From a virus: a DNA stretch of 64,000 nucleotides. How positions within the stretch are numbered: the first letter of the stretch is position 1; every line of letters starts with the position of its first letter. The notes beneath the pieces were generated by a model, which saw nothing but the letters and a program-made list of their open reading frames with translations, searched no databases and had not been told where the DNA came from. Positions 1 through 63,196 of this stretch are shown here, piece after piece. The position numbers were made by a program, and so were the translations under genes. The DNA lies in the IMG/VR virus record IMGVR_UViG_3300047497_000079, positions 1 to 64,000 of that record; one strand, written 5' to 3'.

Positions 1-40
1 TGAGGCGGGAATCATCCCCCTCTACAAGGAGGAACTATCT

Positions 41-325
41 ATGGACAATGTAACTGTTGTGATCGCGACCGTTTATTCAGGCGGAGCGTCGGAATCCGGA
101 AGCTGTGTCGTTTCCGAACATACTGATCTGGAAGAGGCCAAGGTTACGGCCCGCGATGAAGCTCTGGAGCGCTTTGCTGAAACGCACGGCGATCTGGAAC
201 CACAGCATCGCATCATTCTAGGATGCCTAACCTTCCCCGAACCAGAAGTGAAGACGACCGTCTTCGACGCGGTCCTTCCACAACAAACCCCAGATAGCGA
301 GCCGGTGACGGTTCAACTTTCATAG
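41..325 (+). CDS. hypothetical early protein
   Basis: 94-aa ORF with AAGGAGG SD upstream; first gene of a co-oriented small-ORF array. Confidence 0.8.
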   Translation: MDNVTVVIATVYSGGASESGSCVVSEHTDLEEAKVTARDEALERFAETHGDLEPQHRIILGCLTFPEPEVKTTVFDAVLPQQTPDSEPVTVQLS

Positions 326-403
326 AGTTCACCCAGGGGGCGGGTCCGAAAGGACCCGTCTCATCAGAGGAGAGTAATTAGCCAATTTTAACAAGGAGGT
401 GTT

Positions 404-673
404 GTGAAAAATGGCAAACGTTCTGATTCCCTCCCAAAGGAAACGGGACCACCAAAAGAACTGATTACTATTGATCAGATAGACCAACTAATCACAGAAC
501 TTGACGACGATTTCATTCGCGCTCTTAGCGAAGAATATGACGAACCCCTCGACTATTCAGATGTCCTTGAGCCGACCATCTTTGGTCAGTGGCTCATCCC
601 GCTTCTGTTAGGTGAGTTCATCGTATTGACCATCGCCATTGTCCTCTGGATCGTGTGGCTATCTGATCGCTGA
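404..673 (+). CDS. hypothetical protein with C-terminal TM helix
   Basis: GTG start after TTAGCCAATTT + AAGGAGGT; hydrophobic C-terminus. Confidence 0.75.
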   Translation: MKNGKRSDSLPKETGPPKELITIDQIDQLITELDDDFIRALSEEYDEPLDYSDVLEPTIFGQWLIPLLLGEFIVLTIAIVLWIVWLSDR

Positions 674-754
674 AATCGTTGCCTCGGGGGAGAGATTCCC
701 CGAGGTTTTATTTTATTGTTTAGCCAATTTAGGCACATAAGGAGGAGTATTAAG

Positions 755-970
755 ATGCGTTATTCGGACAAAAGCGAACTCAAATATTTGATCAATGAGT
801 ATGGCTTTGACGCCGTTATCGCTGCTCTGACTGAGGTCGTGGCGGCTAAGTCTGAACAGATGAGAGACATCAATAAAACACGCTCAAAGGAATGGGGAAG
901 AGCTTCGGCTCGTCTGACAGAATTGCGCGTGTGGTGTGACCGTTTCGGTCCAGACTCTAACTGCCGCTGA
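755..970 (+). CDS. hypothetical early protein
   Basis: Start moved to ATG 755, downstream of TAAGGAGG. Confidence 0.75.
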   Translation: MRYSDKSELKYLINEYGFDAVIAALTEVVAAKSEQMRDINKTRSKEWGRASARLTELRVWCDRFGPDSNCR

Positions 971-1024
971 TCATTGGAGGGGGATACAACCCCCTCTGTT
1001 AGCCAATTTTACAAGGAGGTAAAC

Positions 1025-1318
1025 ATGGCACCAGACCTTAACATGCTCGTCATTGAATCCAAATTCCCCCTCGCTTCAACGCCCGTTGGAAAGTTTGCCG
1101 GCGAAAGAGTTGCCGTCGCAATTGCTTATGAGCGAGTCCGGGCCGGTGAAGGTGAATCGTTTGGTTCACCTCTTCATTTCGGCTTCTACGGCCGCGTCAT
1201 GGTTTGTGACGATCCGATCTGTTTCGTCGAGGATGAGTACGGCGTGAATGAAATCACGGAAGAGGAGTATCGAAGCGCCGAAGAGGAGGAGTTCCTTGAA
1301 TTTGATGACGGCGCATGA
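1025..1318 (+). CDS. hypothetical early protein, acidic C-terminus
   Basis: ATG 1025 after AAGGAGGT. Confidence 0.75.
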   Translation: MAPDLNMLVIESKFPLASTPVGKFAGERVAVAIAYERVRAGEGESFGSPLHFGFYGRVMVCDDPICFVEDEYGVNEITEEEYRSAEEEEFLEFDDGA

Positions 1319-1387
1319 AACTGGTATTTAAAGCCAAGGAGGGGTTCGCCCCTCCGAGGCGTTTGTCCATTTTGATAGGAGTATTTA

Positions 1388-1597
1388 ATGGATCAGAGAA
1401 CGCTTGACCACCTGGATAGGTGGCTTAATTCGGAGATGTCGCGTTTGCCCGAACACACGCGGACCAAGTTCCGCAAGGTTATGATCGCCGTCTACAATGA
1501 AGACCCCGACCATTGGGGGAACACTTCGTGGTGGCGATGCTTCGACGAAGCGACATTTAGGATCGAGCGCGAAGCCATCAGGGAAAGTCAAGTTTAA
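1388..1597 (+). CDS. hypothetical early protein
   Basis: AGGAG SD; hairpin and motif upstream. Confidence 0.75.
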   Translation: MDQRTLDHLDRWLNSEMSRLPEHTRTKFRKVMIAVYNEDPDHWGNTSWWRCFDEATFRIEREAIRESQV

Positions 1598-1657
1598 AGC
1601 CGAGGGGGCGGAAGCCCCCGTGGCGTTAGTCCATTTAACCACAAGGAGGTATTGGAC

Positions 1658-1888
1658 ATGTCTAACGATCACACGAACGGAGTTACCACTATGAGCAGAG
1701 CCGAACAACTCAAGGCTGAACTTGCCGAAGCCCGCGCCGCCGAGAAGGCGAAGAAGGAAGCCGAGCGTAAAGCAAAGCGCGAGGCCAAAGAAGCGGCCGC
1801 GAAGGCAAAGAAGCAGGAAGCCATTGACTGGCATCTTGAGAAATTGGCGAAGCTCGGTGCTGATTGCCACTGTGAGATTAAAGACTAA
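1658..1888 (+). CDS. Ala/Lys/Glu-rich helical hypothetical protein
   Basis: ATG 1658 after AAGGAGGT. Confidence 0.7.
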   Translation: MSNDHTNGVTTMSRAEQLKAELAEARAAEKAKKEAERKAKREAKEAAAKAKKQEAIDWHLEKLAKLGADCHCEIKD

Positions 1889-1989
1889 CCAGTATTGCCG
1901 AGGGGGAGCGATCCCCCGAGGCGTTTGTCCATTTAGGACCAAGGAGGTAATCATGGCACAAGTAGAAGTAAACGCTATCGGAGGTACAC

Positions 1990-2169
1990 ATGAAGAAACA
2001 GATAGGCGTGATTGATTGGTCGCGGTGGAATGACCGCCCGTGGTGGATCAAGAACGGGTTCAAGACGCGGGAGGAGGCGTGGGATGCATACCGGGGCAAT
2101 CCCGAAGCTTCCGAGAGCGCCGCTCATCAAGCCGAGTGGATCAGGAAGCGCCGCCAGTCTAAATCATGA
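1990..2169 (+). CDS. 59-aa Trp-rich hypothetical protein (not in ORF track)
   Basis: GGAGGT SD at about 1980; MKKQIGVIDWSRWNDRPWWIKNGFKTREEAWDAY...; TGA at 2167. Confidence 0.7.
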   Translation: MKKQIGVIDWSRWNDRPWWIKNGFKTREEAWDAYRGNPEASESAAHQAEWIRKRRQSKS

Positions 2170-2267
2170 ACCACGAGTCTAAACTTGCATCCATGAGATC
2201 TTATTGAAAGCCAAGGGGGTCTTCGGACCCCCGAGGCGTTTGTCCATTTAGGACCAAGGAGGTAATC

Positions 2268-2501
2268 ATGCCCTATGTTGTGCAGATGCAATACTATGTT
2301 CAGGGTGACAAATATACTCACTTAGTGCATAGCAAGAGTACAAATAAACTCTTGGTATATCCAGATCATAAATCGGCAAAAGTGTGGCCCGACGAGGCTC
2401 TTTTTCCGAAGGTTGATTGCGATAGAGCACCTGAGTTCTCGCTCGTGGACGTTAGATCTTTGCCAAAGCTTTTACAGAAGGCAATTGCAGAGGGGGCGTA
2501 A
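2268..2501 (+). CDS. hypothetical early protein
   Basis: AAGGAGGT SD; hairpin and motif upstream. Confidence 0.75.
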   Translation: MPYVVQMQYYVQGDKYTHLVHSKSTNKLLVYPDHKSAKVWPDEALFPKVDCDRAPEFSLVDVRSLPKLLQKAIAEGA

Positions 2502-2542
2502 GCCCCCAAAGCGTTAGGTCATACTGACCAAAGGAGGTATTC

Positions 2543-2845
2543 ATGGCACAAGTAGAAGTAAACGCATATCCAATTCATGAAAGGTTTCCGGGCGGACATA
2601 CGATTTCGTTCGACCTCACAAGCCGGTCCCCATCCAAACGCTACGACATCAAGAATGTCGACGATGCGAAGGCAGCTCTGGCTGACTTTGCAATGGAGAT
2701 GGCGAAGACCCAGAAGGCTTGGGAGGTATCGGTACGTTTCGATAAACGTTCTGGTCGTAAACCTGCTGGATTTGATAAAGCGGACAGGGCACGCGAATTA
2801 CAATGCCTCGTCAATCTCGAACTTGCACCTATGAGAAAATATTGA
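2543..2845 (+). CDS. hypothetical early protein
   Basis: AAGGAGGT SD. Confidence 0.8.
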   Translation: MAQVEVNAYPIHERFPGGHTISFDLTSRSPSKRYDIKNVDDAKAALADFAMEMAKTQKAWEVSVRFDKRSGRKPAGFDKADRARELQCLVNLELAPMRKY

Positions 2846-2902
2846 AAGCCAAGGAGGGGTTCGCCCCTCCGAGGCATTAGTCAATTTAAACAGGAGGACA
2901 CT

Positions 2903-3346
2903 ATGTTATCAGACACAGATAGGGGATGTATACGTAGGCACTTCACAGTACCCCCGCATATTGAAGCCTGTAGTAGGGCTATCTGCTATGACTTGTTATT
3001 CGGACCTTCTTGGTCACTTATCCCTTCCAACGACATCACCAAGTACAACGCGGATTGTCTCGCGACTTTCCGTGCGGACCTTGAGGATGATTTTGAAGAG
3101 GGAGACGTGATCGAGGAAACGTATGTCGGTCAGGTGGCTCAAGCCCTACGGGACTTCATAGATTCCCTGCCCTCTGAGATTTATTATGACAAACAATTGG
3201 GTGAGGTCCTCGATAAGGAACCTGAAGGCTATGAAGACGAAGATGGTGAGTATTATGAACCCGACTGGGATGATTATTACAAGCTTGATAGCGCCGACAT
3301 AGTCGAGGTTCTCTTCGGGAAAACAATCGCCCGAGAGTTCAAATAG
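2903..3346 (+). CDS. acidic hypothetical protein
   Basis: AGGAGG SD; very D/E-rich. Confidence 0.8.
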   Translation: MLSDTDRGCIRRHFTVPPHIEACSRAICYDLLFGPSWSLIPSNDITKYNADCLATFRADLEDDFEEGDVIEETYVGQVAQALRDFIDSLPSEIYYDKQLGEVLDKEPEGYEDEDGEYYEPDWDDYYKLDSADIVEVLFGKTIAREFK

Positions 3347-3404
3347 GAGAGGAGGTCTTCGGACCTCCGATCCGTTTGTTCATTTAGAACCAAAGGAGAT
3401 AACA

Positions 3405-3590
3405 ATGAAGAAGATGTCCCAAAAGGATATGTTCTATAAAGCCAGTCGAGACAACGCGGCTTTGGATGCTGAATTTTCTGAAATGGTGAATGGCCCAAAC
3501 CCGATTACGAAAGCGGAATTGGAACGTCTCATTCAGAAACGCCCTACACTCTGGGGCCGTTGGAAGTCCTGGCTCGACAAACTCCAGTAA
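3405..3590 (+). CDS. hypothetical early protein
   Basis: AAGGAG SD. Confidence 0.75.
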   Translation: MKKMSQKDMFYKASRDNAALDAEFSEMVNGPNPITKAELERLIQKRPTLWGRWKSWLDKLQ

Positions 3591-3640
3591 TTGGTAGGGG
3601 TACGGCCCCTACCGTTAGCCAATTTTCAAAGGAGGCAAGA

Positions 3641-3871
3641 ATGCACAACGAATGTTGTGAACATAATGAAAAATGCAACTGGGCAGTAGGTTCCAATTTT
3701 CCAGGGTACCTTCCAGAAAATCACGCTGAACACTTTTCTGATTGGTATGACGCTTATGAGTATTTCATGCAGCTTTCAGAAGATTTACCGGTCGTTGAAC
3801 CAGAGAAAGACATCGAAACCATTGGTAAAGATGGAATGATCTACTGGCTGGTTGCTATTGGAAGGGGTTAA
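3641..3871 (+). CDS. hypothetical early protein
   Basis: ATG 3641 after AAGGAGG. Confidence 0.75.
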   Translation: MHNECCEHNEKCNWAVGSNFPGYLPENHAEHFSDWYDAYEYFMQLSEDLPVVEPEKDIETIGKDGMIYWLVAIGRG

Positions 3872-3913
3872 CCCCCTTCCGTTTGTCCATTTTCAGGACT
3901 ACAGGAGGTAACT

Positions 3914-4183
3914 ATGCGCAATCGTTTTGATAAAGCTCTCTATGCTCAGGCAGGAGCGGGCAATCCTTCGGGCATTGCTCTGGGAATAATCGAAGCATGT
4001 GAAGAAATCAGAAAAGACCCACACTGGTCAACGGAAGGGATCTGCAAAGACCCTGCGGTACGCCTCTTGGTGCATCAGTTGGCTAGCATCTGCGAAGTGT
4101 GGGAGATGTTTTACGACTTCGATGAATACGCTCGTCTCATGAATGAGTGCAGGAAGCTTTCGAGCGAAAACGTCGTTACATAA
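3914..4183 (+). CDS. hypothetical early protein
   Basis: AGGAGGT SD. Confidence 0.8.
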   Translation: MRNRFDKALYAQAGAGNPSGIALGIIEACEEIRKDPHWSTEGICKDPAVRLLVHQLASICEVWEMFYDFDEYARLMNECRKLSSENVVT

Positions 4184-4257
4184 CCGAATAAGACAAGGGG
4201 CGGCCGTCGCCGCCCCTTGTCTGGCTTTTAGCCTTATTTCAAGGCAAGGAGGTATCT

Positions 4258-4485
4258 ATGAGCATTAACTTTTCTTCTGAACCAGATGGGTGTGGTTTTA
4301 TCTATCAGCGCACGCACAATTGCGGTTTCGAACAGTACAATATCGCCGTTCCAGGCCGGGGCTATGGACCCCATCCTGGTCCTGGCTTTAAGGTGTTGTA
4401 CGGTGGTGTCGAGATCGGCGAGGCTGCTACGCTCGACGAGGCCAAGACCATTGCCAACGCTCACTGGCAGAAGATACAAAACTAG
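4258..4485 (+). CDS. hypothetical early protein
   Basis: AAGGAGGT SD. Confidence 0.75.
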   Translation: MSINFSSEPDGCGFIYQRTHNCGFEQYNIAVPGRGYGPHPGPGFKVLYGGVEIGEAATLDEAKTIANAHWQKIQN

Positions 4486-4554
4486 CTCAGAGGCATGGGG
4501 TTCACATCCCATGCCGGCCTTCGGCTTTTAGCCACTTTTAACAAGGAGGTAAAC

Positions 4555-4965
4555 ATGTACTTCTCATGTATCTACGCCGTTGACTGCCATCCAGACAATC
4601 TCTACGGAGCCGAATTTTATAAACCTGATATCGGTGAGTGGACGGAAACGGAGGGTGACGATCAGTATCAGAAGTGGTGCGCGATCTTAACTAAGGACGA
4701 GTTCCTTAAATGGGTCAGGGGAAATTTCTCCGTTGGCAGCCTTTCGGAAACGATGGGAATGCTTGGTGCTCCTGGCTTTGGTATTGGTCATGCACCTGCA
4801 TGGTGCTTAACCTCAGGCGAGGAAGATTGGTCTGGCTCTCTGTATTTTTGCCCTCTCATTCCGATGCAACGAAAAACAGGTGAAGCCGAATTTTATAAAG
4901 TGGCTGACCGGGATGAAAACTGGAAGCGCCTAAAACGCGCGGTAATCAACATGATGCGGAAGTAA
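4555..4965 (+). CDS. hypothetical early protein
   Basis: ATG 4555 after AAGGAGGT. Confidence 0.8.
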   Translation: MYFSCIYAVDCHPDNLYGAEFYKPDIGEWTETEGDDQYQKWCAILTKDEFLKWVRGNFSVGSLSETMGMLGAPGFGIGHAPAWCLTSGEEDWSGSLYFCPLIPMQRKTGEAEFYKVADRDENWKRLKRAVINMMRK

Positions 4966-5020
4966 TTGTAAGCTCGGGGTTCGCCCCGAGTGTTAGCCTA
5001 TATTAAACCAGGAGGTAAAC

Positions 5021-5263
5021 ATGACTTATTTTAATGGCACTCATCCTAGCTTACCGACAGAGAACGTACGAGGTGAACCCATTTCACGTAAGCCAATGAC
5101 ACGGATCTATTGTGATGCCTGTGCGGAGGCGGCAATACCGCTTCCACCAGCAGGTCCACTCACAAGCGATCCGATGGTCGGCCGGCACTGGAATACAGAG
5201 TTCATCTGGTGTCCTTATTACGGTGGGGATGCCAAGTGCCAAGTTTGTAATGAGCCATGCTAA
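5021..5263 (+). CDS. small Cys-rich (CxxC...CxxC) putative Zn-finger protein
   Basis: AGGAGGT SD; CDAC and CQVC motifs. Confidence 0.7.
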   Translation: MTYFNGTHPSLPTENVRGEPISRKPMTRIYCDACAEAAIPLPPAGPLTSDPMVGRHWNTEFIWCPYYGGDAKCQVCNEPC

Positions 5264-5303
5264 TTGTAAGCTAGGGGTTCACCCCTAGTCTTAGTAAATT
5301 TTC

Positions 5304-5375
5304 TTACTCCAATGCGAAACCTAATACGTCGTACCGGGGTGGTGCTCGGTGCTTGAAGATGCAGCCATGGAGTAA
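5304..5375 (+). ncRNA. Type II hammerhead ribozyme-like element HH1 (predicted cleavage after GUC, C5330)
   Basis: TTACTCCA.TGC-GAAAC..GTC-[GTACCGGG gtggtg CTCGGTGC]-TTGAAGA-T-GCA-gcca-TGGAGTAA; U3 core variant, extra U after A9, only 2-bp stem III. Confidence 0.7.
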
Positions 5376-5379
5376 ACGA

Positions 5380-5601
5380 GTGGGCCAATCTAAAATGTAC
5401 CAACCGGAAGTCGACGCTATCGTCGATAAGGTTCGAAAGACGAAGAGCTGCGAACGAACGACATTACCAGATGGTGCCGAGGTATATGCCTATCCTTATG
5501 CGGATGGCTCGGTAGCATGGGGTATCAATCGTCCCAGCGATCACGTCAACATCTTACGCGGCATTCGTGGCCCGGATGGTCAGGACAGGAACACTTATTG
5601 A
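5380..5601 (+). CDS. hypothetical protein between HH1 and HH2
   Basis: GTG 5380 lies 7 nt after the GGAG in HH1 stem II; same frame as track ORF 5353..5601. Confidence 0.7.
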   Translation: MGQSKMYQPEVDAIVDKVRKTKSCERTTLPDGAEVYAYPYADGSVAWGINRPSDHVNILRGIRGPDGQDRNTY

Positions 5602-5626
5602 TCTAAGCGGGGGCTTCGGCCTCCGC

Positions 5627-5695
5627 CCTCCAATGCGAAACGCAATAGCGTAGTACCGAGGTGGTGCTCGGTGCTTGAAGATGCAACCATGGAGG
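5627..5695 (+). ncRNA. Type II hammerhead ribozyme-like element HH2 (predicted cleavage after GUA, A5652)
   Basis: CCTCCA.TGC-GAAA-CGC aata GCG-TA-[GTACCGAG gtggtg CTCGGTGC]-TTGAAGA-T-GCA-acca-TGGAGG; loop I UGGU can pair with the ACCA bulge. Confidence 0.8.
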
Positions 5696-5700
5696 TAAAA

Positions 5701-5814
5701 ATGCACGAATACATCGTCCCCGCGATAATTGGTATTCTTTCAGGCTGGGTCGCCTATGACATCATAGGCGGCATCGTCCTGTTCATCAAATACCGGAAGG
5801 AACGGGTCGAATAG
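5701..5814 (+). CDS. 37-aa single-pass membrane protein (not in ORF track)
   Basis: MHEYIVPAIIGILSGWVAYDIIGGIVLFIKYRKERVE; its SD GGAGGT is the 3' strand of HH2 stem II. Confidence 0.7.
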   Translation: MHEYIVPAIIGILSGWVAYDIIGGIVLFIKYRKERVE

Positions 5815-5855
5815 CATTCTCTAATGCAACTACTTGATAGCCATGGAGGTAACCC

Positions 5856-5933
5856 CTCCTAGAATCGAAAAGCGCCAGGCCGACCCCCTGGCGTCTTCAT
5901 GCCGGGGTGGTGCTCGGCGTCTGATGAAAGGAG
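5856..5933 (+). ncRNA. Hammerhead-like element HH3 (canonical CUGAUGA core, imperfect stem II; predicted cleavage after UUC, C5898)
   Basis: GAAA-AGCGCCAGG..CCTGGCGTCT-TC-[ATGCCGGG gtggtg CTCGGCGT]-CTGATGA-AAGGAG; CTCCT/AGGAG distal pairing. Confidence 0.55.
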
Positions 5934-5939
5934 TAGATA

Positions 5940-6188
5940 ATGCCAATCACTAAGCAGGAACTTGCTATGGTGGCAGACTTGCTCGAAGAGATCGAGAGGG
6001 CGTCCCGTGAGGCACAGGCGCTGTTGATGAAAGCAGGGTATCACACGATGCCCTCGCCCATCGGCAAGGCCAATCATTTCCTCATGGACCATGTCGGTAT
6101 TGGTCATCCGGACTTTCCGGAACTTGCAAGTCTGTACAGTCCACCAAGCAAGCTTGCCGATGAGCTAAGGCATTTGCGTCAGAACTAA
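5940..6188 (+). CDS. hypothetical protein downstream of HH3
   Basis: AAGGAG SD within HH3. Confidence 0.75.
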   Translation: MPITKQELAMVADLLEEIERASREAQALLMKAGYHTMPSPIGKANHFLMDHVGIGHPDFPELASLYSPPSKLADELRHLRQN

Positions 6189-6310
6189 CCAACAAAAAAG
6201 GGACGGAAGGTGGTGCTTCCGTCCCCGTGGTGCTCGCGCCTTCGACCATGGAGGTGCTGCATCCGAATATCATTATGTTAGCCAATTTTCAACAGCAAAT
6301 GGAGGTGGAA

Positions 6311-6523
6311 ATGTCGGTAGAGATTGATACGGACGACGCGAAGGCATTTGGGGCAGACGCCTGGGTTCATTGCGGGTCACATGGAAGGCCACACCGAACG
6401 GGGTGGTGTACCGTTAATGTCCGCAACAAAACCCTCTTGAAGGCCACAAATTTCGACGACGCCGTCAAGGAATGCAAAGCCCGAGGGCTTTGGCTGTACG
6501 GCCATCAATCAACCGACACCTAA
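6311..6523 (+). CDS. hypothetical early protein
   Basis: ATG 6311 after GGAGGT. Confidence 0.7.
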   Translation: MSVEIDTDDAKAFGADAWVHCGSHGRPHRTGWCTVNVRNKTLLKATNFDDAVKECKARGLWLYGHQSTDT

Positions 6524-6587
6524 CTACATTAGCCAGCCCTCCGTGGCTGGCCCTTAGGTCATAACTGAAAGGATAGGACCAAAAAAC

Positions 6588-7022
6588 ATGCGATACGTCT
6601 TCGATGACGGAGGCAGATCAGCCGCCGGCTTCAAAGGAAGATCCGGTGATTGTGTTTGCCGATCAATCGCCATCGTCACGGGAAAACCCTACCTAGAGGT
6701 GTATCAAGAAATCAATGCCATAGCCCAAACCGAGCGCCCCAACTCGAAGCGGCGTAAGGGAAAGCGCTCATCCGCCAGGGATGGAGTTTTCAAGGCAACC
6801 ATGCATCGATATCTCAAGGACCTCGGGTATCAGTGGGTCCCCACGATGAAAATAGGGCAAGGCTGCAAAGTCCATATGCGACAAGATGAACTGCCCCCTG
6901 GACGCCTAATCGTGAATTTGTCAAAGCATACGACGGCCGTCATCGACGGCGTGATACACGACACACACGATTGTTCGCGGGATGGAACGCGCTGCGTTTA
7001 TGGCTATTTTGTGAAAGCCTAG
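6588..7022 (+). CDS. conserved phage protein, possible papain-like Cys-His-Asp fold
   Basis: GDCVCRSIAI...H..AVIDGVIHDTHDC motif pattern. Confidence 0.65.
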   Translation: MRYVFDDGGRSAAGFKGRSGDCVCRSIAIVTGKPYLEVYQEINAIAQTERPNSKRRKGKRSSARDGVFKATMHRYLKDLGYQWVPTMKIGQGCKVHMRQDELPPGRLIVNLSKHTTAVIDGVIHDTHDCSRDGTRCVYGYFVKA

Positions 7023-7026
7023 CAAC

Positions 7027-7062
7027 AAAAAGGGGCAGCCGGAGGTAACCGCTGCCCCTTTT
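7027..7062. terminator. bidirectional intrinsic terminator ending the early array
   Basis: AAAAAGGGGCAGC..GCTGCCCCTTTT. Confidence 0.7.
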
Positions 7063-7340
7063 CGTCTACAAGGAGGTGGCCTGCTTATAGCGGGTAACGC
7101 CCCCGCGCACAAGACAAATTTGTGCAGATGTAATTCGTTGAACGCCGGTCCTTTTCCGGCTTTAGTGAATTTAAGTCCAAGGCGTCAGATGCTTTCATGG
7201 AGACAGTCCGAATAGCACATATTCCGAAAAATTGTGACTATTCCAAGCACTTTTAGTGACTGCTTTCATCAACACAACTTAACAAAAGTTGTGAATTTTT
7301 CGTAGCGCCTTGATTTTTTAACACATATTTTATAACGTGT

Positions 7341-7820
7341 GTGTTAGCGGGAACTTGCAACGCAACACGTTATAAAAGCGATTCTAAAATGACAAGAGAC
7401 TGGGAAAGTGAAGTCAAAGAAGCGATTGCAACTCGCAAAAGAGAAATCATGCTTCTTGAAGGATACCTAAAATCCCGGAGTTCGGTCGATCACCTGCTGT
7501 CAGGAGCTGGCCGTCGAAAGATGCCAGCTAGTTATGAGTCCAGAGATTTGATGACCGAATCTGGGACTACCGAAGAAATTCTCCCCACGGTATCTGGCCG
7601 TGTTGGGAAGGCGATCTCCCCCGAGACCAAGCAAATGTTAGAGCAAGCCGTTGAAATCGTAAGGCTTGCTGGCGGAAAGCCCGTCGCTACGAGCGTCCTG
7701 ATGGAAGAACTTAAAAAGCGTGGTATCAAAAATCCAGGCTCAATTTCCAACATCACGAAGAAGCTCGAACGAGATGGAAGGCTTTTGAATATTCCGCGTA
7801 CGGGATGGACGCTCGCCTAA
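7341..7820 (+). CDS. putative winged-HTH DNA-binding protein (likely start ATG 7389)
   Basis: C-terminal wHTH-like segment; AT-rich promoter-like upstream region; terminator at about 7850-7875. Confidence 0.55.
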   Translation: MLAGTCNATRYKSDSKMTRDWESEVKEAIATRKREIMLLEGYLKSRSSVDHLLSGAGRRKMPASYESRDLMTESGTTEEILPTVSGRVGKAISPETKQMLEQAVEIVRLAGGKPVATSVLMEELKKRGIKNPGSISNITKKLERDGRLLNIPRTGWTLA

Positions 7821-7903
7821 TACGGTTTTCACTACAATCAAAGCAGTTCAAGGGGGCCTCGCGGCTCCCTTTTTCTGTTCTCTCTTGTCGTTCTTAGTCC
7901 ATT

Positions 7904-8911
7904 TTGATGAAGGTCAAGGTGGTCGCGGCGCTTAGCCGCAGTTCAACCCCAACTATAGGGGTCATCCGAAAGATGAGAAATATATCCTTGAGCCAAGTGA
8001 TCCTTGGCGCAGGTGGGGCGGGGATCATGGCTTGCCAGATCTTCGCAGCATATTCGAACGGTCTTAAACAAGCTCTCGACGGCTCGCTGGAAAGCCAGTT
8101 CTTCGGTATCGCTTTCGTAAGCGTCGTCGTCATCACACCATTCATTCTACCGCGTGCTTTCAGCACTGCACGCACTGTGGTCGGTAAAGCGGCCGGATTC
8201 CTGTTGTGGTTCATTGGTTTTGCATTCGTGCTCTACAATGCCGCGACGTTCACTTTCTCCAACCGGGCAGAGATGGTTGACGTGAAGGTGGTCAAAGTCG
8301 GAACCTACGACTTGGCGAAAGCCAAGCTTGAAAGGGCCAATGGGGATCGCGACAAGCAGAAGTCCAATCCCAGATGGGACAGGACGGACGGCTGCACCAA
8401 AATTCGCAACGACGCAGACGCACAGTTCTGTGACGTTGTGAGGGCTACAGTGAAGGAAATCCATGATGCAGAGGACGGTATGAAGGGGGGGAAGCCCCGA
8501 TACGCCGACCCTGCTGTTCATATTCTCTCGTGGATTACGGGGGTATCGGAGGAGACAGTGGAAATGGTTTTGCCCATTGCGCTCGCCGTTACTCTGGAAT
8601 GTCTGGCGTCTGGCGTCTGGTGGCTTGCGCTATCAGGGGCTGAGAGTATTGCAGAACCTGCCGTTCAAATAACCCCGCTCGAAAGCGTCCCGGAGGAGGA
8701 TGACCGTCCTTCCAAAACCGATGAGGAACTCTATCCCGAATTGGTCTTTTCTGACGGTTCTGACTATAAGCCTCGTGCTTTAGGTCGTCCCCTCCGCCCC
8801 AGAACGAAACATGCGTGGATCATTCCACCAATTGATGGACGCACTCTTAGGCCGTTTAGGCGGCCACAGAATGATAACGCGCCCTTGGGGAGCGCGACCG
8901 AAGATGATTAA
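7904..8911 (+). CDS. multi-pass membrane protein
   Basis: Three N-terminal TM segments, a periplasmic coiled region with a Cys pair, then a further TM. Confidence 0.7.
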   Translation: MMKVKVVAALSRSSTPTIGVIRKMRNISLSQVILGAGGAGIMACQIFAAYSNGLKQALDGSLESQFFGIAFVSVVVITPFILPRAFSTARTVVGKAAGFLLWFIGFAFVLYNAATFTFSNRAEMVDVKVVKVGTYDLAKAKLERANGDRDKQKSNPRWDRTDGCTKIRNDADAQFCDVVRATVKEIHDAEDGMKGGKPRYADPAVHILSWITGVSEETVEMVLPIALAVTLECLASGVWWLALSGAESIAEPAVQITPLESVPEEDDRPSKTDEELYPELVFSDGSDYKPRALGRPLRPRTKHAWIIPPIDGRTLRPFRRPQNDNAPLGSATEDD

Positions 8912-8937
8912 GGGGAGCTTTCGGCTCCCCTTTTTTA
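8912..8937 (+). terminator. intrinsic terminator
   Basis: GGGGAGC tttcg GCTCCCC TTTTTT. Confidence 0.75.
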
Positions 8938-9207
8938 TTTGTAAATTTTGATGATGTGAGCGGAGGTCGGAGAGCCACAGACGGGTTCCCGGTCTTGATC
9001 CGCTTTATATCCAAGGGTTTGTTCGTGCCGCATAATTCGCAGGTGCTGACCCGAAAATTCGAGGATCAGTGCGGTGGATATAAACACCCAGACGGCCGCA
9101 ACTGCCGAGGCCAGATATAACTTGTACTCACTTGGAGTGAGGTGGCGTCCGTCGCCGCCTTGGCTTTTTGGTATCGGATTGGTTATTGTTTTCATCGACA
9201 TGAACAA
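8935..9207 (-). CDS. single-TM protein next to the holin (possible lysis accessory)
   Basis: One TM; overlaps the 3' end of the holin. Confidence 0.5.
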   Translation of the reverse strand: MFMSMKTITNPIPKSQGGDGRHLTPSEYKLYLASAVAAVWVFISTALILEFSGQHLRIMRHEQTLGYKADQDREPVCGSPTSAHIIKIYK

Positions 9208-36436: not shown

Positions 36437-36510
36437 TGGTTCACCCTCATGGATTCGAACCACGGTTTTCTGATCCAAAGTCAGACGTCCTACCGCTAGA
36501 CGAAGGGTGA
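36437..36510 (-). tRNA. tRNA-Gln (TTG)
   Basis: Reverse complement TCACCCT..TCTGA ctTTGga TCAGA..GGTTCGAATCC..AGGGTGA A CCA. Confidence 0.92.
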
Positions 36511-42805: not shown

Positions 42806-42887
42806 GCGGACGTGGCGGAACTGGTAGACGCAAGGGACTTAAAATCCCTCGATCTCGGTCGTGCGGGTTCGAATCCCGCCGCCCGCA
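42806..42887 (+). tRNA. tRNA-Leu (TAA), CCA not encoded
   Basis: GCGGACG TGGCGGAACTGGTAGACGC AGGGA ctTAAaa TCCCT, variable arm, GGGTTCGAATCCC. Confidence 0.92.
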
Positions 42888-42904
42888 CATACTAATACTG
42901 ATCC

Positions 42905-61700: not shown

Positions 61701-63104
61701 ATGATCATTGATGTTAACCGCCCCATCACGGGAAAGACTCTCATTGACCTCGGATACAAGTCTGGTCCCTGGTTTTCCCGTGCCATAGCCGAAGCCGAAG
61801 CGGCGCGGAAGCTTCATCGCCCCGCTGACGAGATCCGCCTCATCATCGACAGCTACGTTCCGGCACCGCCGACGCCGCTACACCCCATGGGGTTTCGGCC
61901 GTTCCATCTCAATATCGAAGCCGTGAACGAAGGAGATGCCGATAACATCAACAAGGTGTCCGTGGCGATGGACCATATCATGCGCGTTCCTACCGTCGTT
62001 GCAGGGGCCATCATGCCCGATGCCTGTCCCACGGGAGGTCCGGGAGAGATCCCCGTAGGCGGCGTTGTAGCCACGCAGGGGGCCATTCATCCGGGGTGGC
62101 ACTCCTCTGACATCTGTTGCTCTCTTGCCATGTCCGTGCTCGGAGACGTCGATCCGAAGGCCGTTTTGGACGCGGGTATGGCCCTCACTCATTTTGGACC
62201 TGGGGGCCGGCCGCGGTCGGGACAGATCCGGCCCAATCTCGAATTCCTGGAACGGATGAACGAGAACAGCTTCATGAAGCACGTCGTATCCGAAGCCATT
62301 GAGCACAACGCCACGCAGGGCGACGGCAACCACTTTTTCTATGTGGGACGGGTAGCTTCCACGGGCCACACGGCCATCGTCACCCACCATGGCTCACGAA
62401 AGCCCGGTGCCCTCCTGTATAAGATGGGTATGGTCCTGGCCGAGAAGAACCGTAAGAAGATCTGCCCCGAGGCCCCGCCCGTCGCGGGCTGGATCGACGC
62501 CGACACTTACGAAGGCGAGGAATACTGGAACGCCCTGCAACTGATCCGTGAATGGACCAAGAACAACCACATGGTCATTCATCACCTCGTATCCGGGCGG
62601 CTCAAGGCAAAGATCCGCGATCAGATGTGGAACGAACATAATTTTATTTTTCGTAAGACGGACGGGCACTTCTACCACGCGAAGGGGGCGACACCTGCTT
62701 ACAAGGGATATGCCGCCGACGAAACGGGCGTAACGCTGATCCCCCTGAACATGGCCGAACCTATCCTCATGGTCGAGGGCCTCGATGCTCCTAATGGTCT
62801 CGGCTTTTCTCCTCACGGGGCAGGCCGGAACTATTCCCGTACGGCGTTCATGAACTCGTTAGGACCTAACGCCGATAAGAAGGAGATCGTCGCGGAACAG
62901 ACCAAGGGCATAGACGCCCGTTTCTTCTGTGGTGTTCCCGATCTGAGCGAGCTGCCCGGAGCCTACAAGAATGCCTCCACAGTTCGTTCGCTCATCGACA
63001 AGTTCGGACTTGCCAAGGTCGTCGATACCGTCGAACCTTACGGTTGTATCATGGCCGGGGACTGGCAGGTGAACGCGCCGTGGCGAAAGAAGAAAGGTAG
63101 ATGA
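61701..63104 (+). CDS. rtcB: RtcB-family RNA ligase
   Basis: MPDAC, IPVGG, DICCS, GDGNHF, HHGSR, HNF, KGAT, HGAGR, E.P.AYK. Confidence 0.93.
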   Translation: MIIDVNRPITGKTLIDLGYKSGPWFSRAIAEAEAARKLHRPADEIRLIIDSYVPAPPTPLHPMGFRPFHLNIEAVNEGDADNINKVSVAMDHIMRVPTVVAGAIMPDACPTGGPGEIPVGGVVATQGAIHPGWHSSDICCSLAMSVLGDVDPKAVLDAGMALTHFGPGGRPRSGQIRPNLEFLERMNENSFMKHVVSEAIEHNATQGDGNHFFYVGRVASTGHTAIVTHHGSRKPGALLYKMGMVLAEKNRKKICPEAPPVAGWIDADTYEGEEYWNALQLIREWTKNNHMVIHHLVSGRLKAKIRDQMWNEHNFIFRKTDGHFYHAKGATPAYKGYAADETGVTLIPLNMAEPILMVEGLDAPNGLGFSPHGAGRNYSRTAFMNSLGPNADKKEIVAEQTKGIDARFFCGVPDLSELPGAYKNASTVRSLIDKFGLAKVVDTVEPYGCIMAGDWQVNAPWRKKKGR

Positions 63105-63106
63105 TC

Positions 63107-63196
63107 GGAAGGGTGGTTGAGCGGTTGAAAGCACTGGTCTTGAAAACCAGCGGCCCCTCATGGGGTCCGTGGGTTCGAATCCCACCCCTTCCACCA
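63107..63196 (+). tRNA. tRNA-Ser (TGA)
   Basis: GGAAGGG..CTGGT ctTGAaa ACCAG, long variable arm, GGGTTCGAATCCC, CCCTTCC A CCA. Confidence 0.93.

Follow-up and report, generated by a model that had tools for sequence, protein, structure and literature searches.

Thousands of hammerhead ribozymes are known from bacteria and phages. In engineered hammerhead switches, a Shine-Dalgarno (SD) sequence is hidden in a ribozyme stem and is freed when the ribozyme cuts; RiboJ is an example of a ribozyme insulator. Here, we describe three tandem hammerhead-like elements, HH1 (positions 5304–5375), HH2 (5627–5695), and HH3 (5856–5933), located on the + strand of the virus record IMGVR_UViG_3300047497_000079 from IMG/VR. 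The analysed stretch, referred to below as the window, comprises the first 64 kb of this 81.6-kb record; gp5- and gp6-type baseplate proteins are encoded in it, and the virus is therefore a T4-like myovirus. The sequence is contained in two DNA sequencing runs of a moss metagenome, which may be its origin, and no RNA run was listed as containing it. Tandem hammerheads between phage genes are already published and are not new. What is unusual here is an extension of stem II by a helix of 5–8 base pairs (bp) that contains the SD sequence of the downstream gene, as well as the presence of U at core position 3 (U3) in HH1 and HH2.

The elements resemble the engineered SD-release switches in that the SD sequence is paired in a hammerhead stem, and in that a cut would convert this pairing to a weak intermolecular helix. 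The engineered switches, however, are designed type I or type III ribozymes with fast cores, whereas the elements described here are natural, of type II, of doubtful activity, and have no known ligand control. Their closest natural relatives are the pseudoknotted type II ribozymes of the Rfam family RF02276 (PMC3088659). This family shares with the window elements the order of parts, the GAAA and (C/U)UGANGA core segments, A15.1-U16.1, and H17. Also shared are the 8-bp stem I with a G-GUGGUG-C loop, an additional U following A9, a proximal stem II of 3 bp, an RCCA tail (in HH1 and HH2) with which loop I can pair, and an intergenic location just ahead of a start codon. The window elements differ from the family in their low match scores (30–32 bits, below 37), in U3 (HH1 and HH2), in a stem III of only 2 bp (HH1), in an A·C opposition at 10.1/11.1 and the lack of an adjacent RCCA (HH3), and in the 5–8-bp SD helix, which is absent in the other 80 members listed. 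Multiple hammerheads flanking prophage genes have also been described (Perreault 2011, PMC3088659); in those clusters, as presented in the article, several ribozymes lie on the same strand with one small gene between neighbours, as is the case here. Unlike the prophage clusters of that article, the locus is carried by a T4-like myovirus, its copies are weaker, and two broken remnants belong to the array.

Relationship to type II hammerheads

The order of parts is the same in all three elements: the 11.x strand of stem II, GAAA, stem III, NUH, stem I as a hairpin with GUGGUG in its loop, YUGANGA, and the 10.x strand of stem II. Each copy has the arrangement of a three-helix junction in which stems I and III are capped and stem II is open. 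The original prediction had assigned the type II order and cuts after positions 5330, 5652, and 5898, and the same positions were obtained upon direct reading of the sequence. When a 1.6-kb segment was searched with the Rfam Hammerhead_II model (RF02276) using relaxed filters, all three elements were matched end to end, HH1 with 31.9 bits over 5312–5370 (E = 3.8e-4), HH2 with 30.3 bits over 5633–5692 (E = 9.9e-4), and HH3 with 31.3 bits over 5863–5942 (E = 5.4e-4). A search of the complete 64 kb returned HH1 (E = 0.015) and HH3 (E = 0.022), while HH2 was unlisted. All three scores are below the gathering score of the model, 37 bits, and a gathering-level Rfam scan of the window revealed three tRNAs and nothing else. 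No other ribozyme class was detected in the window at E ≤ 1. Three same-strand matches in consecutive gaps are far beyond chance, and HH1–HH3 are very probably hammerhead-derived. Since the gathering score is not reached and HH1 and HH2 lack C3, we refer to the elements as hammerhead-derived rather than as bona fide active ribozymes.

The best-formed copy is HH2. Its anti-SD strand CCUCCA (5627–5632) pairs with UGGAGG (5690–5695). Between the two strands lie UGC (5634–5636), GAAA (5637–5640), stem III CGC/GCG (5641–5650), a GUA whose last base, A5652, precedes the predicted cut, stem I (5653–5674), the U3 core UUGAAGA (5675–5681), U5682, GCA (5683–5685), and ACCA (5686–5689), which occupies the consensus place of the pseudoknot and can pair with UGGU of loop I. 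The SD sequence GGAGG (5691–5695) is followed by an ATG at 5701. In its minimum free energy (MFE) structure, HH2 adopts the complete three-way junction of a hammerhead (z = −2.99), and only 2 of 200 shuffled sequences were as stable.

HH1 also has a U3 core, and its stem III is limited to 2 bp. Its anti-SD strand UUACUCCA (5304–5311) forms eight contiguous Watson-Crick pairs with UGGAGUAA (5368–5375). UGC (5313–5315) and GAAA (5316–5319) are followed by GUC, with the predicted cut after its last base, C5330, by stem I (GUACCGGG/CUCGGUGC, 5331–5352), the core UUGAAGA (5353–5359), an extra U5360, and GCA (5361–5363). The pseudoknot partner of loop I UGGU (5340–5343) is GCCA (5364–5367), which aligns to the AGCCa tail of the Rfam consensus. 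The SD sequence GGAG (5369–5372) precedes the GTG start codon at 5380 with a 7-nt spacing. In both HH1 and HH2, stem II starts with a G-C pair, followed by C-G and A-U.

In HH3, the invariant core segments are all present (CUGAUGA, GAAA, and UUC). The anti-SD CUCCU (5856–5860) pairs with the SD sequence AGGAG (5929–5933), and the ATG is at 5940. GAAA is located at 5867–5870, stem III (10 bp with one bulged U) at 5870–5897, and C17 at 5898, so that the cut is predicted after C5898. Stem I (AUGCCGGG/CUCGGCGU) spans 5899–5920 and the core 5921–5927. The nearest GCCA sequences are at 5942–5945, where the start codon is overlapped, and upstream at 5840–5843. The former is the sole GCCA 3′ of the core, and a loop I pseudoknot formed there (5940–5945) would cover the start codon of the downstream gene. 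On the minus strand, stem III of HH3 followed by CTTTTC (5873–5893) is terminator-like; no minus-strand gene is evident nearby.

Comparison of HH3 with HH1 and HH2 reveals two compensatory changes in stem I, one at 1.1/2.1 (G-C to A-U) and one at the third pair (A-U to G-C), bearing out the covariation noticed originally, and a G·U pair in one of HH1 and HH2 stands against an A-U pair in the other. Wherever HH1 and HH2 differ in stem I, in the pseudoknot, or in distal stem II, pairing is maintained, and one of these differences is compensatory. Loop I is identical in the three copies, the invariant core is intact at all positions besides position 3, and H17 is never G. The RF02276 consensus contains the loop cgUGGugG and the tail AGCCaAAg; therefore, the UGGU/RCCA contact, which had been suggested for HH1 and HH2 as a plausible tertiary interaction, is the published pseudoknot of the family as described in Perreault 2011. 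This pseudoknot joins loop I to the nucleotides immediately 3′ of stem II by four or more pairs, and most members, though not all, have it. A pattern derived from the window elements matched one other IMG/VR contig (L003), and the element found there scores 47.0 bits with RF02276. In stem I and the loop, it is almost the same as the window copies, with 12 nt of loop and stem I fully identical, and it likewise contains an additional U behind A9, a proximal stem II of 3 bp, and an AGCCA tail.

Shine-Dalgarno sequences in the stem II extension

The proposal that the SD sequence is the 3′ strand of stem II in all three elements, paired with an upstream anti-SD, holds directly at the level of sequence. 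The distal stem II helices are 8 bp long in HH1, 6 bp in HH2, and 5 bp in HH3, with the SD sequence forming the 3′ strand in each case, and the SD sequences lie 5–7 nt ahead of the start codons at 5380, 5701, and 5940. In HH1 and HH2, the helix extends stem II past an internal loop, which the four nucleotides of the pseudoknot make up. A compensatory change distinguishes these two copies at the sixth pair (A-U in HH1, C-G in HH2). It is likely that the helix forms in the RNA.

To compare the elements with their class, members were collected by a degenerate-pattern scan of IMG/VR, which yielded at least 119 stretches. A total of 146 matches had full flanks, 103 passed a filter that required NUH and no fewer than 6 of the 7 stem I pairs, and 89 of these, including HH1–HH3, were unique; the 89 listed members are a sample of the class. 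When 83 of the members listed were ranked by the energy of the SD duplex, HH2 was first (−10.9 kcal/mol), HH1 fourth, and HH3 ninth. We then replaced the upstream flank of each element with 80 swapped flanks, for the 19 members whose SD sequence begins no more than 14 nt after A9. None of the 80 swapped flanks was as good as the native one for either HH1 or HH2, and for HH3 the fraction was 0.025. The remaining 16 of the 19 members were unremarkable, besides two (L027, 0.049, and L077, 0.098). The L027 element (~4900) is similar to those in the window: GUCUCCU, located 3 nt upstream of stem II with AAA between, is opposite AGAGGAC and can form 6 of 7 pairs with it; AGAGGAC lies just past the pseudoknot nucleotides and holds the SD sequence.

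Masking of the SD sequence as a rule of the whole family was considered and rejected: among the members listed, the mean duplex energy was −4.18 kcal/mol, vs −4.10 kcal/mol with swapped flanks (Wilcoxon p = 0.82). The SD helix is lineage-specific and not general to type II hammerheads. The "natural ribozyme-gated translation system" of the original prediction can therefore be put forward only as a hypothesis, and for one lineage.

The predicted consequences of a cut were calculated with nearest-neighbour thermodynamics, in which tertiary structure is ignored. The probability that the SD sequence is unpaired increased from 0.004 in uncut HH1 RNA to 0.81 in the free 3′ fragment, from 0.002 to 0.60 in HH2, and from 0.153 to 0.52 in HH3. 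In prediction, all three elements thus behave as cleavage-released SD switches, with the SD sequence paired before the cut and unpaired after it. The calculated energies of fragment binding are −7.0 (HH1), −8.8 (HH2), and −7.4 kcal/mol (HH3), corresponding to Kd values of ~1e-5 to 6e-7 M. Because these values are far above plausible mRNA concentrations, the cut pieces should part. If the ribozymes cut, unmasking of the SD sequence would follow physically according to this model. The idea that cleavage releases the anti-SD is thus in agreement with folding for these copies, in which the SD sequence is predicted to be masked before the cut and exposed afterwards, while in the rest of the family masking is at the level of chance. 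A literature search revealed no natural hammerhead with an SD sequence inside a stem; the search covered article texts, and the supplementary files of Perreault 2011 (Dataset S1, Figures S6–S8) could hold SD-containing or U3/G8 cases.

Gene array, broken copies, and arrays in other phages

Positions 1–9000 of the window are occupied by an array of small + strand genes with unassigned functions. A usual intergenic gap in this array contains, in this order, a GC hairpin, an 11-mer TTWGYMMATTT, and an SD sequence. The 11-mer is present in 14 copies, all on the + strand between 378 and 8948, while 0.71 are expected. It is nearly always located 2–4 nt past the GC hairpin and 5–12 nt ahead of the SD sequence. 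Within the small-gene cassettes, its role may be that of a processing signal or of a promoter-like element. In three consecutive gaps, the place ahead of the SD sequence is occupied by a longer element, HH1, HH2, or HH3, always on the gene strand. HH1 is preceded on the + strand by a GC hairpin (5271–5288) and the 11-mer copy TTAGTAAATTT (5291–5301), and sits between that copy and its SD sequence. Immediately 5′ of HH2 there is another + strand GC hairpin, GCGGGGGC-UUCG-GCCUCCGC (5607–5626), which is present in the predicted fold of the 5′ fragment. Two gaps before HH1 (4967–4995 and 5267–5290) have in common TAATTGTAAGCT-hairpin-TTAG, and the stems of their hairpins differ by a compensatory C-G to A-T change; they represent a repeated cassette boundary.

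The genes downstream of the elements are all on the + strand. HH1 is followed by a 73-aa gene (5380–5601) with an in-frame GTG start. The open reading frame (ORF) between HH2 and HH3 (5701–5814) encodes a 37-aa hydrophobic peptide, for which a PHROG search returned no match, and the ORF 3′ of HH3 (5940–6188) encodes an 82-aa protein, for which a search among 5.8 billion proteins found only the protein itself. Neighbouring proteins of 156 and 508 aa are without relatives in IMG/VR, while 15 loci were found for a 144-aa protein, with a hammerhead in none of the 15 records. The locus has no match in the phage GenBank collection. As no orthologous locus was found, the covariation described above is one between paralogous copies only. 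Promoter and terminator scans of 4400–7000 gave three of each, vs 2.4 expected, and are hence uninformative. Further along the window, a gene of an RtcB-family RNA ligase (61974–63050, + strand; 475-aa frame, 86 bits) is directly upstream of tRNA-Ser (63107–63196); the other tRNAs are tRNA-Gln (36437–36510) and tRNA-Leu (42806–42888).

Two additional, broken copies are present on the + strand near HH3. Remnant A (5820–5849), identified by alignment, is a hammerhead cassette with its middle deleted (CTCTAATGC ... CTTGATA GCCATGGAGG): GAAA, stem III, and stem I are gone, and the GCCAUGGAGG tail is kept. Remnant B (6200–6254) consists of a 10-bp hairpin with a GUGGUG loop (6200–6225) followed by GTGGTGCTCGCGCCTTCGACCATGGAGG. 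Read on the minus strand (6199–6226), the hairpin of remnant B together with the TTTTTTGTTGG behind it has the form of a strong intrinsic terminator; here, too, no gene on that strand is evident in the vicinity.

An SD sequence and a start codon were detected within 100 nt of 83 of the 89 listed class members, using a permissive detector applied without a control. Five other phage loci contain 23 Hammerhead_II matches, 22 of which score 38–56 bits and one 33.3 bits. Two pattern-defined copies in these arrays were unlisted by the Hammerhead_II search, so that weak copies occur elsewhere. In one provirus (L121, 3742–9597, + strand), two pistol ribozymes (68.4 and 67.3 bits) are followed by seven type II hammerheads (47–56 bits), all on one strand and spaced by roughly 500–900 nt. 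A 76-kb phage record, IMGVR_UViG_3300028840_005153, contains ten pattern-defined type II hammerheads, seven at 8263–10755 of L094 and three at 483–4489 of L034, each of which has the same AAAAGGAGGAG SD sequence 23–34 nt later. In both of these records, as in the window, a single small gene separates one ribozyme from the next.

Core defects and competing explanations

Our preferred explanation, which we hold tentatively, is that the elements are SD-occluding hammerhead leaders in which slow or partial self-cleavage limits translation. HH1–HH3 would then be three diverged copies, accompanied by two remnants, of one cassette from the phage family of pseudoknotted type II hammerheads. Each copy is situated in the leader of one small gene of this T4-like virus and stops a few nucleotides before the start, as in most relatives, and the open stem II would have been lengthened in this lineage by a 5–8-bp helix whose 3′ strand is the SD sequence. 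Upon folding during transcription, the three-way junction would close over the SD sequence, which would stay paired. Only self-cleavage after H17 (5330, 5652, and 5898) would remove the anti-SD for good: the duplex that joins the pieces is interrupted and worth only about −7 to −9 kcal/mol, so that they should part, and the product would be a 5′-OH mRNA with a stem I hairpin cap and a free SD sequence. The net effect would be attenuated, cleavage-limited translation, not fast insulation.

Cutting is expected to be slow or partial, because HH1 and HH2 carry U3, stem III of HH1 has only 2 bp, and the proximal part of stem II is poor in HH3. The original prediction had correctly listed these weaknesses, namely U3 opposite G8, the 2-bp stem III, and the lack of a clean 10.1-11.1 pair in HH3. 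Replacement of C3 by U causes a defect of a few hundred- to a thousand-fold in minimal constructs. The cleavage of the copies is probably slow, and the chances that at least one of them cleaves at a useful rate are close to balanced, falling just on the doubtful side.

Natural hammerheads with unusual cores offer a partial parallel. Covariation of U3 with A8, A6C in phage Bcep176, and 2a/2b insertions in haloviruses HF1/HF2 have been described (Perreault 2011; PMC7151607). As those sources present them, such variants are, like HH1 and HH2, phage-borne, have a non-consensus core, and are placed just before a gene; they are slow under standard conditions, and the HF1/HF2 variants coincide with a mapped 5′ end. 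According to Perreault 2011, core variants from a saltern and from haloviruses are hundreds of times slower under standard conditions, and one impaired-core halovirus variant is located 13 nt before a helicase start, with its cut site at a mapped 5′ end. The core of this variant is written with U at position 3 in PMC7151607. Unlike in these variants, U3 faces G8 in the window elements, and there is neither an insertion nor A8; we found no report of this combination in the article texts of Perreault 2011 and PMC7151607. An active hammerhead with a U-U mismatch at 10.1-11.1, the position affected in HH3, is on record (Perreault 2011, article text).

A number of observations weigh against cleavage-limited translation. 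On the side of the core, C3 is present in 87 of the 89 listed class members, whereas U3 is confined to HH1 and HH2. A pattern specific for U3, with the loop GGUGGUGC and the RCCA tail fixed so that U3 variants with other loops would escape, matched no other stretch in IMG/VR. In 185,579 genomes (one per species), it had three matches, none of them a hammerhead (stem I 3–4 of 7 pairs, no NUH). A stem I/core pattern, with the same loop and tail fixed, found 17 stretches in metagenome contigs; judged by eye, none of these is a hammerhead, as the stretches lack the stem I 5′ strand and the GAAA segment. Natural U3 is reported only together with A8 in the article text of Perreault 2011. When a type III hammerhead was mutagenised comprehensively, activity was low in all single mutants of its CUGA turn, the only rescue being a C:G to G:C swap (Roberts 2023, as far as the article text goes). 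One added stem II pair substantially lowered the activity of a pseudoknotted type II ribozyme, again according to the text of Perreault 2011. None of the three copies reaches the RF02276 gathering score, and all score below 22 of the 23 hammerheads of the other phage arrays.

The predicted structures are also in part unfavourable. In the MFE structure of HH1, stem I and the 8-bp distal stem II are kept while stem III is unformed (−24.3 kcal/mol, vs −16.9 kcal/mol for the hammerhead fold). HH3 has an A10.1/C11.1 mismatch, a 5-bp stem II located past a 5-nt bulge (UAAGA, 5861–5865), and no RCCA directly after stem II; its hammerhead fold (−31.3 kcal/mol) is 8.5 kcal/mol worse than the alternative MFE structure (−39.8 kcal/mol), and its anti-SD is able to pair locally with the SD sequence of the upstream remnant (GGAGG, 5845–5849). 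After a cut in HH1, the SD sequence of the first gene could re-pair with the anti-SD of HH2 present in the same 322-nt piece. An unmasking gain above 0.4 is seen in 7 of 80 listed relatives, vs 5–8 of 80 with swapped flanks, the median gain being 0.02. HH1–HH3 share ancestry (CCCTCC is in the same place in HH2 and HH3) and are therefore not three independent events; CCUCC is also frequent in intergenic hairpins of the same phage. Finally, two neighbouring copies are plainly broken, and the whole set may therefore be decaying.

The last point leads to the strongest alternative, which we regard as possible, although rather doubtful: the cassettes formerly cleaved and are now dead, being a neutral or static leader structure that restrains three small genes, and perhaps mainly a recombination linker for cassette shuffling. 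The defects differ from copy to copy, each affecting a position of known importance, and CUGA-turn single mutants such as those of Roberts 2023 are low in activity. U3 is unique to one phage within our scans; the sub-threshold scores of 30–32 bits compare with 38–56 bits in other arrays; two obvious remnants lie inside the same 900 nt; and the region is one of shuffled small-gene cassettes with a repeated 11-mer. Against decay, none of the other invariant core positions is altered in any copy, H17 is G in none of them, pairing is kept despite the substitutions by which HH1 and HH2 differ (stem I, pseudoknot, distal stem II), and loop I, whose only known role is in the pseudoknot, is identical in all copies. 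Sub-threshold copies are found in other arrays too (one of 23 at 33.3 bits and two pattern-defined but unlisted), and haloviruses appear to use impaired natural core variants, as described in Perreault 2011.

It is unlikely that the elements are fast processing sites, where co-transcriptional cuts split a polycistronic transcript into single-gene mRNAs and the SD helix is a stem II clamp with no regulatory meaning, since the masked state would be too brief. Such an interpretation has been published for hammerhead clusters in phages (Perreault 2011, in its text). It agrees with the location of 83 of 89 listed relatives just before a gene start and with the arrays of seven and ten copies in other phage records. 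Moreover, the family normally has a stem II of 2–3 bp together with a pseudoknot, and strands ~55 nt apart would meet more easily if the stem were longer. The core and stem defects of HH1–HH3, however, argue against fast cutting, the other 80 listed members manage without the extension, and lengthening of stem II decreased activity in the single pseudoknotted type II ribozyme tested for this in the text of Perreault 2011.

A bolder extension of cleavage-limited translation, which we consider improbable, is that a processing ribozyme has been turned into a natural translation valve: with the SD sequence in the closing helix, a core slowed by U3 opposite G8 would time or limit the expression of each gene, including that of the 37-aa membrane peptide. 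In its boldest form, the excised pieces would re-close on a hybrid hammerhead and give RtcB-sealed circular mRNAs. That the pieces of 322 nt (5331–5652) and 246 nt (5653–5898) do become circular mini-mRNAs, their ends re-forming a hybrid hammerhead and being joined by the ribozyme or by the phage RtcB, is very improbable. In favour of it, the MFE structure of the 322-nt piece pairs UGGAG of HH1 (5368–5372) with CUCCA of HH2 (5628–5632) and places the 5′ stem I beside the 3′ stem III, the phage encodes RtcB (61974–63050, 86 bits), and animal retrozymes are a known case of RtcB-type ligation acting on hammerhead-released RNAs (PMC7229834). Against it, the 246-nt piece re-forms the distal helix only, two active ribozymes, each doubtful, are required, none of five other array-bearing phage records has RtcB, the RtcB gene stands beside tRNA-Ser, which fits tRNA repair, and circular or spliced products were sought and not found according to the text of Perreault 2011.

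The presence of a ribosome-binding site inside the closing helix of a ribozyme bears on what hammerheads do for their carriers. If active, the copies would work like the engineered SD-release switches, and their activity would bear on U3 opposite G8 as a tolerated natural core. If the copies are dead, the locus would still be useful in showing successive stages in the decay of one ribozyme cassette within a single genome.

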